From a virus (lineage: Duplodnaviria > Heunggongvirae > Uroviricota > Caudoviricetes): a stretch of 13,511 nucleotides of DNA. The stretch's first letter is position 1; every line of letters starts with the position of its first letter. Location: IMG/VR virus record IMGVR_UViG_2711768010_000006. One strand, written 5' to 3'. Of the stretch, positions 4,800 through 13,511 are shown in pieces. The notes below the pieces were generated by a model that had not been told where the DNA came from, searched no databases, and saw only the letters and a program-made list of their open reading frames with translations. A program made the position numbers and the translations under genes.

Positions 4800-7700
4800 A
4801 TGGGTAAAGGCAGCAGTAAGGGGCATACCCCGCGCGAAGCGAAGGACAACCTGAAGTCCACGCAGCTGCTGAGTGTGATCGATGCCATCAGCGAAGGGCC
4901 GGTTGAAGGTCCGGTGGATGGATTAAAAAGCGTGCTGCTGAACAGTACGCCGGTGCTGGACAGTGAGGGGAATACCAACATCTCCGGCGTCACGGTGGTG
5001 TTCCGGGCAGGTGAGCAGGAGCAGTCACCGCCGGAGGGATTTGAATCCTCCGGCTCCGAGACGGTGCTGGGTACGGAAGTGAAATATGACACGCCGATCA
5101 CCCGGACCATCACGTCGGCAAACATTGACCGACTGCGTTTTACCTTCGGTGTACAGGCACTGGTGGAAACCACCTCAAAGGGAGACAGGAATCCGTCTGA
5201 AGTTCGCCTGCTGGTTCAGATACAGCGTAACGGTGGCTGGGTGACGGAAAAAGACATCACCATTAAGGGCAAAACCACCTCGCAGTATCTGGCCTCGGTG
5301 GTGGTGGATAACCTGCCGCCGCGCCCGTTTAATATCCGGATGCGCAGGATGACGCCAGACAGCACCACAGACCAGCTGCAGAACAAAACGCTCTGGTCGT
5401 CATACACCGAAATCATCGATGTGAAACAGTGCTACCCGAACACGGCACTGGTCGGCGTACAGGTGGATTCGGAGCAGTTCGGCAGCCAGCAGGTGAGCCG
5501 TAATTATCATCTTCGCGGGCGCATTCTGCAGGTGCCGTCGAACTATAATCCGCAGACGCGGCAATACAGCGGTATCTGGGACGGAACGTTAAAACCGGCA
5601 TACAGCAACAACATGGCCTGGTGTCTGTGGGATATGCTGACCCATCCGCGCTATGGCATGGGGAAACGTCTTGGTGCGGCAGATGTGGATAAATGGGCGC
5701 TGTATGTCATCGGCCAGTACTGTGACCAGTCGGTGCCGGACGGCTTTGGCAGCACGGAGCCGCGCATCACCTGTAATGCCTGGCTGACCACACAGCGCAA
5801 GGCGTGGGATGTGCTCAGTGATTTCTGCTCGGCGATGCGCTGTATGCCGGTATGGAACGGGCAGACGCTGACGTTCGTGCAGGACCGACAGTCGGATAAG
5901 GTGTGGGCCTATAACCGCAGTAATGTGGTGATGCCGGATGATGGCGCGCCGTTCCGCTACAGTTTCAGCGCCCTGAAAGACCGCCATAATGCCGTTGAGG
6001 TGAACTGGATTGACCCGGATAACGGCTGGGAGACGGCGACAGAGCTTGTGGAGGATACGCAGGCCATTGTCCGTTACGGTCGTAACGTCACGAAGATGGA
6101 TGCCTTTGGCTGTACCAGCCGGGGGCAGGCACACCGCGCCGGGCTGTGGCTGATTAAAACGGAACTGCTGGAGACGCAGACCGTGGATTTCAGCGTGGGT
6201 GCTGAAGGGCTTCGTCATGTACCGGGCGATGTCATTGAAATCTGCGATGATGACTATGCCGGTATCCGCACCGGCGGGCGCGTGCTGGCGGTGAACAGCC
6301 AGACCCGGACGCTGACGCTCGACCGTGAAATCACGCTGCCATCCTCCGGCACCACGCTGATAAGCCTGGTTGACGGGCAGGGGAATCCGGTCAGCGTGGA
6401 GGTCCAGTCCGTCACCGACGGCGTGAAGGTAAAAGTGAGCCGTGTTCCTGACGGTGTTGCTGAATACAGCGTGTGGGGGCTGAAGCTGCCGACGCTGCAC
6501 CAGCGATTGTTCCGCTGCGTGAGTATCCGTGAGAACGACGACGGCACGTATGCCATCACCGCCGTGCAGCATGTGCCGGAAAAAGAAGCCATCGTGGATA
6601 ACGGGGCGCACTTTGACGGCGACCAGAGCGGCACGGTAAATGGTGTCACGCCGCCAGCGGTGCAGCACCTGACCGCAGAAGTCACCGCAGACAGCGGGGA
6701 ATACCAGGTGCTGGCCCGCTGGGACACGCCGAAGGTGGTGAAGGGCGTGAGCTTCCTGCTTCGCCTGACCGTGGCAGCGGATGACGGCCGTGAGCGGCTG
6801 GTCAGCACGGCCCGGACGACGGAAACCACTTACCGCTTCACACAACTGGCGCTGGGGAACTACAGGCTGACAGTCCGGGCAGTAAATGCGTGGGGGCAGC
6901 AGGGCGATCCGGCGTCGGTATCGTTCCGGATTGCCGCACCGGCAGCGCTGTCGCGGATTGAGCTGACGCCGGGCTATTTTCAGATAACCGCCACGCCGCA
7001 TCTTGCGGTTTATGATCCGACGGTACAGTTTGAGTTCTGGTTCTCGGAAAAGCGGATTGCGGATATCAGGCAGGTTGAAACCACAGCACGCTATCTTGGC
7101 ACGGCGCTGTACTGGATAGCCGCCAGTATCAATATCAAACCGGGCCATGATTATTACTTTTATATCCGCAGTGTGAACACCGTTGGCAAATCGGCATTCG
7201 TGGAGGCTGTTGGTCAGCCGAGTGATGATGCATCCGGTTATCTGGATTTTTTCAAAGGCGAGATAGGGAAAACCCATCTGGCTCAGGAGCTGTGGACGCA
7301 GATTGATAACGGTCAGCTTGCGCCTGACCTGGCTGAAATCAGGACGTCCATTACGGATGTCAGCAATGAAATCACGCAGACCGTCAATAAGAAACTGGAA
7401 GACCAGAGTGCGGCAATTCAGCAGATACAGAAGGTTCAGGTTGATACAAATAATAACCTGAACAGCATGTGGGCTGTGAAGCTGCAGCAGATGCAGGACG
7501 GACGCCTTTATATCGCGGGTATTGGTGCCGGTATTGAGAACACCCCTGACGGCATGCAGAGTCAGGTGCTGCTGGCGGCGGACAGGATTGCGATGGTTAA
7601 TCCTGCGAATGGCAACACAAAACCGATGTTTGTTGGTCAGGGCGATCAGATATTCATGAACGACGTGTTCCTGAAACGCCTGACGGCCCCCACCATTACC

Positions 7701-8297
7701 AGCGGTGGAAATCCATCGGCATTTTCCCTGACTCCGGACGGAAAGCTGACCGCTAAAAATGCGGATATCAGTGGCAGTGTGAATGCGAACGCCGGGACGC
7801 TCAACAATGTCACGGTAAATGAAAACTGTACGATTAAGGGCATGCTGGAGGCGACTCAGGTCAGAGGTGACTTCGTTAAAGCTGTATCCAAATCATTTCC
7901 GAAACAGGCTGGTACGTGGGGTAACACGGAAACACCAAACGGGACGGTTACAGTCACCATAAGCGATGATCATAACTTTGACCGCCAGATTATTATTCCG
8001 CCCATTATTTTTAACGGTATAGCGTATGACGATCCGGGGAGCGGAAATAACCCAGGAGGCACGCGATACACGGGTTATGGTTTTGAAGTTCGCAAAAACG
8101 GCGTATTAATCGCATCCAGAGAAACTAAAGGTGCCATTCCCGGTAGTTACAGTGCAGTTATTGATATGCCTAGTGGTGGTGGTAGCGTCACTCTGGAGTT
8201 TAAGATTTTCCAGAAAGGCAATCAGGGGGCAGGCAATATCACCGACTGTACGGTGATTGTGACCAAAAAAGCGGCTTCCGGCATCAGTATTCGTTGA
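4800..8297 (+). CDS. J: Host specificity / central tail fibre protein J (lambda gpJ-like)
   Basis: 1165-aa ORF with a GGAG 8 nt upstream of the ATG. The N-terminal ~800 aa match my recollection of lambda gpJ closely ([34 protein letters not shown]...). A central block and the last ~150 aa look different from lambda, and the protein is 33 aa longer than lambda's 1132. Confidence 0.92.
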
Positions 8298-8367: not shown

Positions 8368-8967
8368 ATGCGTAAAGTTTGTGCAGCCATTTTGTCCGCA
8401 GCCATTTGCCTGGCCGTATCCGGTGCGCCTGCATGGGCGTCTGAACATCAGTCCACGCTGAGCGCGGGGTATCTTCATGCCCGGACCAACGTTCCCGGCA
8501 GTGATGATCTGAACGGGATTAACGTGAAATACCGTTATGAGTTTACGGATACGCTGGGGCTGGTGACGTCATTCAGCTATGCAGGAGACAAGAATCGCCA
8601 GCTGACCCGTTACAGCGATACCCGCTGGCATGAAGATTCCGTTCGTAACCGCTGGTTCAGCGTAATGGCGGGGCCGTCTGTGCGCGTGAATGAATGGTTC
8701 AGCGCGTATGCGATGGCGGGTGTGGCTTACAGCCGTGTGTCGACTTTTTCCGGGGATTATATCCGCGTAACTGACAATAAGGGGAAAACGCACGATGTGC
8801 TGACCGGAAGTGATGACGGTCGCCACAGCAACACGTCTCTGGCGTGGGGAGCTGGCGTGCAGTTTAACCCGACCGAATCCGTGGCCATTGATATTGCTTA
8901 TGAAGGCTCCGGCAGTGGCGACTGGCGCACTGACGGTTTCATCGTGGGTGTCGGTTATAAATTCTGA
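8368..8967 (+). CDS. lom: Lom outer membrane protein (Ail/Lom/PagC/Rck family beta-barrel)
   Basis: 199-aa ORF with a signal peptide (MRKVCAAILSAAICLAVSGAPAWA) and a C-terminal aromatic beta-barrel end (FIVGVGYKF). It matches lambda Lom in position, between J and stf. Confidence 0.9.
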   Translation: MRKVCAAILSAAICLAVSGAPAWASEHQSTLSAGYLHARTNVPGSDDLNGINVKYRYEFTDTLGLVTSFSYAGDKNRQLTRYSDTRWHEDSVRNRWFSVMAGPSVRVNEWFSAYAMAGVAYSRVSTFSGDYIRVTDNKGKTHDVLTGSDDGRHSNTSLAWGAGVQFNPTESVAIDIAYEGSGSGDWRTDGFIVGVGYKF

Positions 8968-9020: not shown

Positions 9021-9031
9021 GTGGGGTGAAT

Positions 9032-12000
9032 ATGGCAGTAAAGATTTCAGGTGTACTGAAAGACGGCACAGGAAAACCGGTACAGAACTGCACAATCCAG
9101 CTGAAAGCAAAACGTAACAGCACCACGGTGGTGGTGAACACGCTGGCCTCAGAAAATCCGGATGAAGCCGGGCGTTACAGCATGGACGTTGAGTACGGNN
9201 NNNNNNNNNNNNNNNNNNNNNNNNNNNNNNNNNNNNNNNNNNNNNNNNNNNNNNNNNNNNNNNNNNNNNNNNNNNNNNNNNNNNNNNNNNNNNNNNNNNN
9301 NNNNNNNNNNNNNNNNNNNNNNNNNNNNNNNNNNNNNNNNNNNNNNNNNNNNNNNNNNNNNNNNNNNNNNNNNNNNNNNNNNNNNNNNNNNNNNNNNNNN
9401 NNNNNNNNNNNNNNNNNNNNNNNNNNNNNNGGATTCCCGCCGTCACATGCCGGGACCATCACCGTGTATGAAGATTCCCGACCCGGTACGCTGAATGATT
9501 TTCTCGGTGCCATGACGGAGGATGATGCCCGTCCGGAGGCTCTGCGCCGTTTTGAGCTGATGGTGGAAGAGGTGGCGCGTAACGCGTCCGCAGTGGCACA
9601 GAACACGGCAGCCGCGAAGAAATCAGCCAGCGATGCCAGCACATCAGCCCGTGAGGCGGCAACCCATGCGACTGATGCTGCAGATTCAGCACGTGCAGCC
9701 AGCACGTCAGCCGGACAGGCCGCTTCGTCGGCTCAGTCAGCGTCTTCCAGCGCAGGAACGGCATCAACAAAGGCCACTGAAGCCTCAAAAAGTGCTGCCG
9801 CTGCAGAGTCCTCAAAAAGCGCGGCGGCTACCAGTGCCGGTGCGGCGAAAACGTTAGAAACGAATGCGGCAGCGTCACAACAATCAGCAGCCACTTCTGC
9901 ATCCACCGCGACCACGAAAGCGTCAGAAGCTGCCACCTCAGCCCGGGATGCGTCGGCTTCAAAAGAGGCGGCAAAATCATCAGAAACGAACGCATCATCA
10001 AGCGCCAGTAGCGCAGCTTCCTCGGCGACGGCGGCTGCAAATTCTGCGAAGGCGGCCAAAACGTCCGAGACGAACGCCAGGTCTTCTGAAACGGCAGCGG
10101 GACAGAGTGCCTCAGCTGCGGCAGGCTCAAAAACAGCGGCTGCGTCGTCTGCCAGCGCCGCGTCAACAAGTGCCGGGCAGGCCTCAGCCAGTGCCACCGC
10201 CGCCGGAAAATCGGCAGAAAGCGCCGCATCATCCGCTTCAACAGCCACAACGAAGGCTGGCGAAGCCACTGAGCAGGCCACGGCAGCAGCGAGGTCAGCT
10301 TCCGCAGCGAAGACATCCGAAACGAACGCGAAAGCGTCGGAAACCCGTGCAGAATCCTCAAAAACGGCTGCCGCATCGTCCGCCAGTTCGGCGGCGTCAT
10401 CGGCATCATCGGCGTCTGCTTCAAAAGATGAGGCGACCAGACAGGCGTCAGCAGCGAAGGGCAGCGCCACGACGGCATCCACGAAGGCGACAGAGGCTGC
10501 TGGTAGTGCGACGGCAGCAGCTCAGAGCAAAAGTACGGCGGAATCTGCAGCAACGCGCGCTGAGACAGCGGCAAAACGGGCAGAGGATATTGCATCCGCC
10601 GTGGCGCTTGAGGATGCGAGCACGACGAAAAAGGGGATAGTACAGCTCAGTAGTGCGACTAACAGCACTTCCGAGTCACTGGCGGCAACACCAAAAGCCG
10701 TTAAGGCCGCGTATGACCTGGCTAACGGGAAATACACCGCACAGGATGCAACGNNNNNNNNNNNNNNNNNNNNNGTGGCTGGATTCTCAGGGAGCATTTA
10801 ACCATCCATACTGGATGTGCAAGGGTTCCTGGTCTTATGGCAATAATAAAATCATTACTGATACTGGCTGCGGTAATATTCATCTCGCCGGAGCTGTCAT
10901 TGAAGTAATGGGGATAAAGTCAGCGATGACGATCCGCATTACCACTCCGACCACATCCAGCGGTGGCGGAACAACCAACGCCCAGTTTACCTATATTAAT
11001 CACGGAACAGATTATTCACCTGGCTGGCGAAGGGACTATAACTCCAGAAATAAGCCAACGGCATCAGAGATCGGGGCGCTACCGTCAGGTGGAACAGCAG
11101 TATCATCAGTTAATCTGGCTTCAAAAGGTCGGGTAGCCGCGCTGACAGACAATACGCAGGGGGCAGCAGGTCTTGAGTTATACGAGGTGTATAACAACGG
11201 ATATCCAACAGCGTATGGAAATATCATTCACCTGAAAGGGATGACAGCCGTTGGCGAAGGTGAGTTACTCATCGGCTGGAGTGGTACAAGCGGTGCTCAT
11301 GCTCCGGCATTTATTCGTTCACGACGGGATACGACCGACGCAAACTGGTCGCCGTGGGCGCAGCTTTACACCTCGGCTCATCCTCCTGCAGAGTTTTATC
11401 CAGTCGGTGCACCAATCCCGTGGCCATCAGATACCGTTCCGTCTGGTTATGCCCTGATGCAGGGGCAGACTTTTGACAAATCTGCTTACCCGAAACTTGC
11501 AGCCGCTTATCCGTCAGGCGTGATCCCTGATATGCGTGGCTGGACGATTAAGGGCAAGCCCGCCAGTGGTCGTGCCGTATTGTCTCAGGAACAGGATGGC
11601 ATTAAATCGCACACCCACAGCGCCAGCGCATCCAGTACGGATTTGGGGACGAAAACCACATCGTCGTTTGATTACGGCACTAAATCCACGAATAACACCG
11701 GGGCGCATACGCACAGTCTGAGCGGCTCTACAAGTTCAGCTGGGGCCCACCAACATAGTCAGACTGGGCCCAGAACGAATAGCGGGAGTCAACCTACTGG
11801 AATGTTTCCGGCAGGGAGTACTCAAGTTAGCGGGACTAATCAGGTTGGTATCAGTGGCTCATTAACCAGTGGCACCTCCCAATGGGTAGGTAAATCATCT
11901 TCAGAAGGAAACCATACACACTCACTGTCCGGCACAGCAGCATCTGCGGGTGCACACGCGCATACTGTCGGTATTGGTGCTCATACGCACTCTGTTGCGA

Positions 12001-12098
12001 TTGGTTCACATGGACACACCATCACCGTTAACGCTGCTGGTAACGCGGAAAACACCGTCAAAAACATCGCATTTAACTATATTGTGAGGCTCGCATAA
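9032..12098 (+). CDS. stf: Side tail fibre protein Stf, interrupted by two runs of N with a frame change across the second
   Basis: The N-terminus from the ATG at 9032 ([33 protein letters not shown]) matches lambda Stf; the GTG at 9026 in the ORF track is a less likely start. The middle is an Ala/Ser/Thr-rich repeat, followed by a tail fibre repeat motif ([41 protein letters not shown]). The C-terminal part (ORF 10653..12098, frame 0) ends with the His-rich segment and ...[22 protein letters not shown], as in lambda Stf. The two ORFs are one gene split by the N runs. Confidence 0.75.
9199..9430. other. Run of 232 N (assembly gap or masked sequence) inside stf
   Basis: Directly visible in the sequence. 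The flanking coding frame is preserved across it. Confidence 0.99.
9598..10620 (+). repeat. Coding tandem repeat region in the stf shaft (Ala/Ser/Thr-rich, recurring K-T/S-S-E-T-N-A units)
   Basis: Motifs such as [28 protein letters not shown] and [37 protein letters not shown] recur at irregular spacing of roughly 30-80 aa. The low-complexity GC-rich DNA also opens spurious ORFs in other frames and on the minus strand (9733..10482, 9828..10595, 9864..10640). Boundaries are approximate. Confidence 0.6.
10754..10774. other. Run of 21 N inside stf, with a reading-frame change across it
   Basis: Directly visible. The upstream stf frame ends at a stop at 10799-10801, while the downstream stf frame is the one opened by ORF 10653..12098. 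Confidence 0.99.
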
Positions 12099-12679
12099 TG
12101 GCATTCAGAATGAGTGAACAAGCACGGACCATAAAAATTTATAACCTGCTGGCCGGAACTAATGAATTTATTGGTGAAGGTGACGCATATATTCCGCCTC
12201 ATACAGGTCTGCCTGCAAACAGTACCGATATTGCACCGCCAGATATTCCGGCTGGTTTCGTGGCTGTTTTCAACAGTGATGAGTCATCGTGGCATCTCGT
12301 TGAAGATCATCGGGGTAAAACGGTTTATGACGTGGCTTCCGGCGACGCGTTATTTATTTCTGAACTCGGCTCATTACCGGAAAATGTCACCTGGTTATCC
12401 CCGGAAGGGGAGTTTCAGAAGTGGAACGGCACAGCCTGGGTGAAGGATACGGAAGCAGAAAAACTGTTCCGGATCCGGGAGGCGGAAGAAACAAAAAACA
12501 GCCTGATGCAGGTAGCCAGTGAGCATATAGCGCCGCTTCAGGATGCTGTGGATCTGGAGATCGCAACGGAGAAAGAAACCTTGTTGCTGGAAGCTTGGAA
12601 AAAGTATCGGGTGTTGCTGAACCGTGTTGATACATCAACTGCACCGGATATTGAATGGCCAGTAGCACCTATAGGGTAA
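12098..12679 (+). CDS. tfa: Tail fibre assembly protein Tfa (chaperone)
   Basis: 193-aa ORF beginning [54 protein letters not shown], matching lambda Tfa. Its start shares 1 bp with the stf stop (TAATG). Confidence 0.9.
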
Positions 12680-12759
12680 ATTCGTAATGATTACCTAAAT
12701 ACGTTATTCTTTTGTTAAAAAAGTGATTTTGCTATAGGTAGGGAGTATGTTCTTGGATT

Positions 12760-12795
12760 AAGAATAAAAAATCGCCATGAAAGAGCTTCATGGCG
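12760..12795 (-). terminator. Rho-independent terminator reading on the minus strand
   Basis: Perfect 9-bp inverted repeat CGCCATGAA / TTCATGGCG (12773-12781 and 12787-12795) with a 5-nt loop. On the minus strand the hairpin is followed by ATTTTTTATTCTT (reverse complement of 12760-12772). Confidence 0.55.
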
Positions 12796-13428
12796 AGTAC
12801 ATAAACGTACAAAATGTGATGAAAGTAGAGTGGCGTAAGCCACTATATTAAGATATGACAATAGCGAAGAAAAGTAAATAACATTTTATGGACGTTTAAT
12901 TGTTAATTATAAAAACTAGAGTGCCCGATATTGTTTATCTTGCTTTAAAATAATGTACTCAAACCAAATTTTTGAGCTAAAAGCTCAAATAATATAAATG
13001 CAATAATAATGTTTAATAAGACAATTAGCTTGCTTTGTATTTTCATTTCGGAATACTGTTAAGTAACTTTGATGACCCTAACAATAGATCGGAATTTTCT
13101 TAGAGTCAATGGTCACTGTTTTTGCTTGCAAAGCAAATGTTTTGGTGGTTATAAGTCGTCTTAATATAGTCACGCATGCAACTTGTTCCATGCGGAGATT
13201 AAAGATTGGAATATAACGCGAAGATGGAATTAAATTACATTTGCAATAATTAATTTATTATTACTCAATAATTACCGATATTATTATTGTAAATTAATCA
13301 TTAGAATGCAAAAAGAAATGTAACGGCAAAATAAGAGGACGATAGCTGAGAAAAAAGCGTGCTTTCCCAATCTGGGGCAAATCACGTCTGAATGACACCT
13401 GAAAACAGGTGGTAGCCTCAAGAAGGCT

Positions 13429-13511
13429 GGTGATGCTGCCAACTTACTGATTTAGTGTATGATGGTGTTTTTGAGGTGCTCCAGTGGCTTCTGTTTCTAT
13501 CAGCTGTCCCT
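13429..13511 (+). mobile_element. IS1 insertion sequence, left end only (continues beyond the window)
   Basis: The sequence GGTGATGCTGCCAACTTACTGATTTAGTGTATGATGGTGTTTTTGAGGTGCTCCAGTGGCTTCTGTTTCTATCAGCTGTCCCT matches, as far as I can recall it, the IS1 left terminal inverted repeat and the start of insA. Confidence 0.9.
13484..13511 (+). CDS. insA: IS1 InsA, first 9 codons only (GTG start; truncated by the window edge)
   Basis: GTG GCT TCT GTT TCT ATC AGC TGT CCC translates to MASVSISCP, the InsA N-terminus, at the expected distance from the IS1 inverted repeat. Confidence 0.7.

Follow-up and report, generated by a model that had tools for sequence, protein, structure and literature searches.

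The window, the whole 13,511-nucleotide stretch of viral DNA analysed here, carries ORFs in the order H-M-L-K-I-J-lom-stf-tfa, and the same order was found in relatives. Neighbouring genes matched the Pfam families Ail_Lom (E 2e-122) and Caudo_TAP (E 5e-44). At its 3' end the window runs into IS1. The repetitive stretch at 9598-10620 had been placed within the shaft of the side tail fibre gene stf, and this placement was borne out by the order lom - stf - tfa and by the PF08400 collar domain directly upstream. The features of the locus are as follows.

9026..9532, plus strand: Stf N-terminal collar domain and short linker, with GTG at 9026 and ATG at 9032; interrupted by the N-run at 9199-9430
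9199..9430, no strand: N-run of 232 bases, within the collar-domain coding sequence; the corresponding length is 28 nt in each of five relatives
9533..10624, plus strand: proximal rod, very probably a coiled coil, 52 heptads, ORF aa 170-533 (from the heptad table, statistics, AF2 and lambda homology)
9533-9574, plus strand: two N-terminal cap heptads with a hydrophobic core, PEALRRF and ELMVEEV, preceding 50 x-x-S-A-x-x-A heptads
9733..10482, minus strand (frame -1): antisense ORF of 249 aa, by-product of the GCN/TCN/ACN-rich frame; counterpart of lambda orf206b
9828..10595, minus strand (frame -2): antisense ORF of 255 aa, by-product
9848..9868, plus strand: KTLETNA heptad, motif copy 1, with Glu at core position a
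9864..10640, plus strand (frame +1): ORF of 258 aa, by-product
9974..9994, plus strand: KSSETNA heptad, copy 2, at one edge of a 16-heptad block absent in 33-heptad relatives
10058..10078, plus strand: KTSETNA heptad, copy 3
10144..10458, plus strand: segment absent from lambda stf by global DNA alignment, its boundaries ambiguous by a few bases
10310..10330, plus strand: KTSETNA heptad, copy 4, bordering on its other side the 16-heptad block absent in 33-heptad relatives
10625..10753, plus strand: first copy of a 44-aa (132-nt) Phage_fiber_2-type unit, the true copy-number-variable tandem repeat of stf
10754..10774, no strand: N-run of 21 bases, starting exactly where the first 132-nt unit ends
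10776..12098, plus strand: distal Stf, Collar domain (PF07484, E 2.6e-12) and His-rich gp37-like tip (PF03335, E 8.7e-5)
12098..12679, plus strand: tfa, tail fibre assembly chaperone (PF02413, E 4.6e-44)

The PF08400 'prophage tail fibre N-terminal' profile matched in two parts, profile positions 1-55 before the first N-run (E 1e-27) and 66-134 after it (E 3.6e-32), and the collar also matched residues 1-94 of the solved Ur-lambda Stf (PDB 9e7m, E 3.6e-10). The distal part matched the phrog_295 tail fibre family (E 2e-151) and is collinear with the intact 1023-1029-aa Stf proteins of relatives L001, L003 and L004. The reading frame changes across the N-run at 10754-10774, which splits stf into ORFs 9026..10801 and 10653..12098. 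Because close relatives have 242-248 nt at this site and stf is intact in the relatives aligned across it, the length of this N-run is unreliable, and the apparent frameshift was probably created by it. We rejected the split as a real frameshift as unproven, both N-runs disagreeing in length with every relative aligned across them.

Read in the frame of ORF 9026..10801, positions 9598-10620 encode 342 residues, of which 73.7% are Ala, Ser or Thr (129, 81 and 42 residues), so that the A/S/T-rich composition and the coordinates given in the preliminary description were right. The slightly larger segment 9575-10624, which begins at aa 184, consists of 50 successive 7-residue units of the form x-x-S-A-x-x-A with zero phase breaks. 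Alanine occupies position 7 in 47 and position 4 in 35 of these 50 units, and serine occupies position 3 in 36. The spectral power of alanine at period 3.5 was 10.1, compared with a mean of 0.23 and a maximum of 1.89 among 2000 shuffles (z=43), and that at period 7 also stood above shuffles (z=17). Residue self-identity peaked solely at lags of 7, 14, 21, 28 and 35 (0.38-0.42 versus 0.22, z 8-10), and in-phase 35-aa blocks shared 14.6/35 residues as opposed to 6.8/35 out of phase. Hence, the self-periodicity check that had been proposed for 9598-10620 gave true repetition beyond compositional bias, with a single phase over the 50 heptads. Units of the form K-T/S-S-E-T-N-A had been described as the recurring element. 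Four copies of K[TS][SL]ETNA are indeed present (at nt 9848, 9974, 10058 and 10310), but with spacings of 6, 4 and 12 heptads: what repeats is the 7-aa heptad, and K-T-S-E-T-N-A is one heptad variant with non-adjacent copies. There was no supra-heptad period in the rod. Identity was flat (0.29-0.45) across heptad lags 1 to 39, and the best 35-aa block pairs (23/35 identical residues) had DNA identities of at most 58%, which means that no recent block duplication has taken place.

At the DNA level, the low-complexity tandem repeats that had been claimed were not recovered. Tandem Repeats Finder (TRF; minimum score 30) reported no 21-nt array in 9575-10624, just two trivial matches with scores of 37-43, and in-phase 105-nt blocks were at most 58% identical. 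DNA copies are 61-77% identical, the longest exact internal repeat in the rod DNA is 11 nt, and lag-21 DNA identity was 0.453 compared with 0.372+/-0.013 for codon shuffles (z=6.2). We compared the rod across related prophages, as had been suggested, and found that unit number does differ. The relatives fell into length classes of 33, 34, 35, 42 and 49 heptads, calculated to be about 34-51 nm for the Ala-heptad part, and differed from one another by single block deletions of 7, 14, 15 or 16 heptads with junctions at similar heptads; the in-phase block deletions are of at least five kinds. Ur-lambda Stf belongs to the 34-heptad class, and phages such as PhiR68_2 and mEp460 have a 49-heptad Stf. 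Heptad phase was kept in 118 of 121 proteins. The other three, all singletons, have off-phase deletions of 18, 29 and 145 aa, and either phase breaks are tolerated in these proteins or the genes are defective or misassembled. All five of the full-length relatives examined (94% to 98% nt identity, K-12 stfR included) keep the 49-heptad spacing.

A hypervariable DNA tandem repeat of the VNTR or contingency type, altered in one-unit steps by replication slippage, would account for the short 21-nt unit arranged head to tail, for the variation in unit number and for the lag-21 identity above that of codon shuffles. We consider it very unlikely. Apart from the two trivial matches the rod contains no array, its DNA copies are too diverged (identities and longest exact repeat given above), every traced length difference is one block of 7-16 heptads and never a single unit, and the 49-heptad spacing is constant in all of the full-length relatives checked. 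This explanation is already largely refuted. The preliminary description had allowed for length change by slippage or recombination, and of these slippage is unsupported, given the lack of a TRF array and the 11-nt limit on exact repeats, whereas the change in unit number is real and proceeds via block deletions. We infer that rod length shifts through rare unequal recombination between similar heptads, in which whole heptad blocks would be lost or gained with phase usually intact. The slippage-type tandem repeat of stf is instead the 132-nt unit that begins at 10625 and is separate from the heptad rod. One copy of this unit is found in K-12 StfR and in relative L005, two in L001 and L004 and three in L009, for which TRF returned a period of 132 with 2.3 copies and 90% matches; the copy number in the window is masked by the N-run. 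The Mu tail fibre S protein (PDB 5yvq, 8ju3) aligns to the 44-aa unit.

The stretch had also been said to be longer than its counterpart in lambda Stf, and this was confirmed by global DNA alignment: lambda lacks 10144-10458, a segment of 315 nt encoding 105 aa or 15 heptads. Alignment at the heptad level placed the lambda deletion at heptads 28-42. The two fibres share the lom-stf-tfa gene position, the PF08400 collar and the x-x-S-A-x-x-A heptads, and in lambda and relative L004 alike the rod starts with ARNAS at aa 114. Nucleotide identity to lambda is 85-87% over 713+248 nt. The 15 additional heptads of the window correspond to a calculated 15.5 nm or so of extra rod, and the distal half differs and is mosaic. 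The rod is 94-98% identical in nucleotide sequence, without indels, to the E. coli K-12 Rac stfR and equivalent prophage fibres among many lambdoid phages and prophages. StfR has an identical rod length (343 aa, or 49 heptads, between two 10-residue anchors) and differs in its single 132-nt unit and in its distal module. Near-full-length matches were present in 3,571 of 5,426 complete E. coli genomes. Complete E. coli genomes contain 15,129 matching places in all. The rod of the window has the length usual in E. coli, and it is (laboratory) lambda that is the short variant.

Long spurious ORFs in other frames had been anticipated, and three other frames across the rod are nearly free of stops. 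Gene annotations already exist for such frames, namely lambda orf206b, two hypothetical CDS in the RefSeq phage ev099 (gp23/gp24), phrog_560 and phrog_3324. The frame -1 ORF is 86% identical to lambda orf206b over 118 aa and matched phrog_560 over its full length (E 4e-122), the first 77 aa of the frame -2 ORF matched phrog_3324, and the frame +1 ORF had no match in PHROG. A real antisense gene, either orf206b/phrog_560 or the frame -2 ORF/phrog_3324, that partly shapes the rod sequence would fit two minus-strand ORFs of 249 and 255 aa that recur in relatives and are annotated in lambda, ev099 and PHROGs. It would also fit the single stop in frame -2, where 9.3 are expected under synonymous-codon permutation (P=0.0002). 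We nevertheless judge such a gene highly improbable. The openness of frames +1 and -1 equals the codon-shuffle expectation: the frame +1 open run of 255 aa compares with a shuffle mean of 252 aa, and the longest frame -1 run of 262 aa compares with a mean of 229 aa and is reached by 31% of shuffles. The frame -2 stop deficit arises from an avoidance of CT|A codon junctions that every gene of the window shows (in the other genes, 10 observed versus 31 expected). Applied to the rod, this ratio predicts about 3 stops in frame -2 versus the 1 observed, and relatives of 94-98% identity have 0 to 3. Hence, the P value in support of the antisense-gene hypothesis is accounted for by junction avoidance. 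No product or function is known for such a gene, and CRISPRi knock-down of orf206b in lambda gave no phenotype, the region being dispensable anyway (PMC10695390).

Sequence periodicity, structure prediction and the lambda literature very probably make the rod an alpha-helical coiled coil of the lambdoid side tail fibre Stf, most likely parallel and three-chain. The check by structure prediction that had been recommended gave helix. The AF2 monomer model (mean pLDDT 64.5) has helix at segment residues 34-205 and 220-397 (ORF aa 169-340 and 355-532), with means of 70-87 for 10-residue blocks over segment residues 41-170 and a low-confidence break at 206-219. A 2025 cryo-EM/ET and AlphaFold3 study assigns residues 102-393 of Ur-lambda Stf to the proximal coiled coil in a fibre of three chains; in that study the rod model consists of AlphaFold3 segments fitted to tomograms and the proximal rod is extended and rigid (PMC12617516). 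The trimeric state and extended conformation given here are those of the lambda literature, our own prediction being of the monomer only. Lambda Stf already appeared in a 2005 list of long coiled-coil proteins (PMC1322226). A sequence search of the PDB found no solved structure that spans the rod and, for lambda, nothing atomic past residue 94, and no Pfam family covers the rod.

An intrinsically disordered, compositionally biased linker without a defined repeat would suit the 73.7% Ala/Ser/Thr content and the position of the rod outside every Pfam family, but is scarcely credible and is refuted by the positive periodicity test, that is, by 350 aa kept strictly in one 7-residue phase (period 3.5, z=43), as well as by the in-phase block sharing, the helix predicted throughout the rod and the extended rigid rod of the Ur-lambda tomograms (PMC12617516). 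A non-helical fold of the fibre, for instance a triple beta-helix or beta-spiral, has in its favour the beta-structure of many tail fibre shafts and the gp37-like distal Stf, but is hardly tenable given the coiled-coil signature of the rod (a 3.5/7 periodicity in which small apolar residues occupy a and d), the helix predicted by AF2 and the coiled coil given by lambda tomography and AF3 (PMC12617516).

The Stf rod thus read as a coiled coil has alanine at core positions a (heptad position 4) and d (heptad position 7), and the L, F, V and V residues of the two cap heptads fall on these same positions. The core would be nearly all alanine, flanked by serine or alanine. An all-Ala core is unusual. 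E. coli Lpp-56 is an alanine-zipper parallel trimer with Ala at its core positions, and Lpp itself has a short Ala-zipper segment within a mixed core; the Stf rod, which has no sequence relationship to Lpp-56, has about 48 successive Ala-core heptads. Tail fibres of the Stx-phage type (e.g. BP-4795 ORF75) have the same collar domain and helix start followed by xxSAxxA heptads, and their nucleotide match stops at window position 9585, exactly at the onset of the Ala heptads. Their coil is much shorter and more charged, has one phase shift and is followed by collagen-like G-X-Y repeats. Collagen is always a parallel trimer, and this variant, with its collagen repeats after the heptads, lends indirect support to the three-chain state. 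The T5 pb1 L-shaped fibre (PDB 8hqz) and T7 gp17 (PDB 7boz) gave weak rod matches (E 0.06-0.2) with no demonstrable homology. In their shafts, as here, Ala/Ser-rich helical segments adjoin the virion attachment domain. The coiled-coil segments of these two proteins are shorter and have conventional hydrophobic cores.

In function the rod would be a rigid spacer that sets the receptor-binding tip at a distance from the tail collar, its calculated length being about 54 nm (364 aa, about 52 heptads, 0.148 nm per residue) versus some 38 nm for lambda. The chain register would probably be set by twelve core layers of Glu or Lys, sparsely distributed and including the KTSETNA heptads, together with short hydrophobic caps at both ends. 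We infer that these irregularly placed layers could act as register marks that stop three near-identical Ala-zipper chains from pairing out of register. The 7-residue periodicity would be maintained by structural selection on the protein rather than by recent DNA duplication. In-phase deletions are no proof of selection, however, since recombination between similar, phase-locked heptads would also yield them. A more elaborate proposal is a heptad-quantised spacer, reset by recombination and with putative Glu/Lys register marks, whose length classes would be fitted by selection to how thick the host O-antigen or capsule layer is. We put this forward tentatively, as rather unlikely; the length classes could equally be the neutral outcome of rare unequal recombination.

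The stretch is the well-known Stf rod in its common E. coli form; it is ordinary and already known, and the main value of its analysis lies in annotation and quality control. We recommend a single plus-strand stf annotation for the rod, the minus-strand 'hypothetical proteins' being best seen as shadows of the Ala/Ser/Thr-rich frame. The apparent stf frameshift should not be taken as a lambda-PaPa-like pseudogene, as its position is that of an N-run within a true 132-nt tandem repeat. For phage engineering, the relatives suggest that blocks of 7-16 heptads can be taken out whole and in phase, a natural means of adjusting the length of the fibre.

The window is a lambda-like prophage tail module with the following ORFs:

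40-2397, H
between H and J, in that order: M, L, K and I
4800-8297, J
8368-8967, lom, 5' of stf
start at 9026 or 9032, stf, which contains 9598-10620
12098-12679, tfa, 3' of stf

The stretch 9598-10620 is directly preceded by the PF08400 collar domain and followed by the distal Collar/gp37-like part, and its placement in the stf shaft by the preliminary description is correct. Past tfa (12680-13511) the window is AT-rich (GC 0.28-0.33) and long ORFs are absent. Its last part is 99.5% identical to a sequence annotated as an IS1A-family element, and genomes that match this IS1A-like end at all do so at a median of 10 places; the end of the window is probably an assembly break within IS1. In some close relatives, for example E. 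coli A20 (NZ_CP028755.1; locus L003, 4651-5553), a gene encoding a macro domain-containing protein lies between stf and tfa. This insertion, which the window does not have, was also found among further database matches and may be moron or anti-defence cargo. A PinQ/PinR-type serine recombinase gene just 3' of tfa in some relatives (L001, 6050-6323; L005, 5182-5772) may indicate that these prophages carry an invertible tail-fibre segment; none was seen in the window.

In the stf frame 9598-10620 encodes 342 residues, 73.7% of which are Ala, Ser or Thr. When the sequence was set in rows of seven, 50 heptads ran in unbroken phase from residue 184 (nt 9575), with Ala at position 7 (core position d) in 47, Ala at position 4 (core position a) in 35, and Ser at position 3 in 36. 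The power of the Ala indicator at period 3.5 was 10.1 (z=43), whereas 2000 shuffles averaged 0.23 and did not exceed 1.89. At period 7 z was 17, and residue self-identity peaked only at lags 7, 14, 21, 28 and 35 (z 8-10). Self-comparison had been proposed to distinguish true periodicity from mere composition, and the period-3.5 signal and the multiples of lag 7 bear out the former. The recurring K-T/S-S-E-T-N-A units reported in an Ala/Ser/Thr-rich segment are also present, as four copies of K[TS][SL]ETNA, but these are spaced 6, 4 and 12 heptads apart and thus are not in tandem; KTSETNA is one heptad variant, having Glu at core position a. In PEALRRF and ELMVEEV, the two heptads that precede the 50, these core positions are occupied by L, F, V and V. 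The helix therefore has a conventional hydrophobic cap at its start near residue 170 (nt 9533) and comprises 52 heptads to nt 10624.

An AlphaFold2 monomer model based on a 26-sequence alignment gave a helix from ORF residue 169 to 532 with one low-confidence break, as is typical when long rods are modelled as monomers. PDB coverage of Stf is limited to residues 1-94 (9e7m, 9mgh), the source paper of which describes Ur-lambda Stf as three chains and reports residues 102-393 as its proximal coiled coil (PMC12617516), and lambda Stf was counted among long bacterial coiled-coil proteins as early as 2005 (PMC1322226). ORF75 of Stx-phage BP-4795 (L008, 2300-3619) retains the collar and helix start but continues with a shorter, more charged xxSAxxA coil and then collagen G-X-Y repeats. 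In Stx-converting phages the match to the query is confined to its first 155 nt (collar end plus helix start), the mosaic joint sitting exactly at the start of the Ala heptads. The collagen-bearing variant would agree with a parallel trimer.

At the DNA level, Tandem Repeats Finder (TRF) detected no array in the rod. The direct-repeat families of the rod are 61-77% identical at spacings that are mostly multiples of 21 nt, and DNA identity at lag 21 was 0.453 versus 0.372 in codon shuffles (z=6.2). Exact internal repeats reach 11 nt at most. Comparison of 35-residue blocks gave no supra-heptad period in the rod: blocks shared a mean of 14.6 of 35 residues in phase versus 6.8 of 35 out of phase, and the best pairs shared 23 of 35 with DNA identity of at most 58%. 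Hence, the heptad periodicity is a signature of protein structure, not of recent DNA duplication. The rod is poorly suited to replication slippage, and length change by this route, as had been suggested, is not supported given the lack of an array, the short exact repeats and the low identity between blocks. The region 9500-10700 has a strong AT skew of +0.30 to +0.40 and a GC content of 0.60-0.64, and only 1% of second codon positions in the rod are T; both features arise because hydrophobic residues are nearly absent.

The real tandem repeat of stf is a 44-residue (132-nt) unit, distinct from the rod heptads, that starts at 10625 immediately 3' of the rod. It is present once in StfR, the side tail fibre of the E. 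coli K-12 Rac prophage, twice in PhiR68_2 and ST70, and three times in YZ_2_1, where TRF reported period 132 with 90% matches (L009, 3399-3702). At least one complete copy (10625-10753) and the beginning of a second are present in the window, the true number being masked by the second of two runs of N:

9199-9430, 232 bases, in the collar domain of stf
10754-10774, 21 bases, its start coinciding exactly with the end of the first 132-nt copy

Each of the five relatives examined has 28 nt in place of the first run, and at the second close relatives carry 242-248 nt; the run lengths are therefore unreliable and do not represent real distances. Across the second run stf appears frameshifted and falls into two ORFs, 9026..10801 and 10653..12098; this split is most simply an assembly-gap artefact rather than a frameshift like that of lambda PaPa.

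Three other reading frames of the rod are largely open, with one stop in frame +1, two in frame -1 and one in frame -2, giving ORFs of 258, 249 and 255 residues, respectively. Codon shuffles reproduced the openness of frames +1 and -1; that of frame -2 exceeds the prediction from codon shuffling or synonymous permutation (P=0.0002). The stops missing from frame -2 are all CT|A codon junctions (codon positions 2-3, then position 1), which are strongly depleted in every gene in the window (10 observed versus 31 expected outside the rod). The window-wide ratio predicts about 3 frame -2 stops in the rod versus 1 observed, and close relatives have 0 to 3. CTA and CTAG are generally avoided in enterobacteria, and the depletion is probably this general avoidance. 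Such shadow ORFs have entered public annotation, so the warning that they could be mistaken for genes was correct. In the lambda GenBank record the minus strand of the rod carries orf206b, to which window 9733..10482(-) is 86% identical over 118 residues, and RefSeq phage ev099 has two minus-strand hypothetical proteins annotated at the stf shaft. The same ORF, 9733..10482(-), matches phrog_560 over its full length (E 4e-122) and 9828..10595(-) matches phrog_3324. Both PHROG families are listed as of 'unknown function' and were probably built from mis-annotated antisense ORFs. Knock-down of lambda orf206b gave no phenotype (PMC10695390).

The rod of lambda Stf starts at the same residue and is 85-87% identical in nucleotide sequence to that of the window, which is longer, as had been noted, by 105 residues: 10144-10458 (315 nt, 15 heptads) is absent from lambda. 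At 0.148 nm per residue the calculated rod lengths are ~54 nm in the window and ~38 nm in lambda. The distance between the anchors that flank the rod was measured in 121 proteins (116 homologues from a protein search, four relatives taken from publicly available genomes, plus lambda and the window) and was a multiple of seven in 118, with values of 231 (n=39), 238 (n=33), 245 (n=2), 294 (n=1) and 343 residues (n=43); the off-phase distances were three singletons of 198, 314 and 325 residues. In a heptad-level alignment at least five distinct blocks proved to be deleted in phase, namely heptads 4-17, 4-18, about 14-28, 20-35 and, as in lambda, 28-42; one more deletion, of 7 heptads, was seen in a single protein. 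The junctions lie at similar heptads (K[ST]SETNA, TSAREA/TSARDA and ASSAS[ST]A). These deletions support the proposed length change by recombination, in the form of block recombination, and are consistent with rare unequal recombination, which would pair phase-locked similar heptads and remove blocks in phase; by themselves they are no proof of selection for phase. The form found in the window is not unusual: K-12 StfR has exactly equal anchor spacing (343 residues), and among 5,426 complete E. coli genomes 3,571 have a match over at least 80% of window 9431-10700. The element is an ordinary one that is already known: the coiled-coil rod of the side tail fibre of lambdoid phages, at the length most common in E. 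coli.
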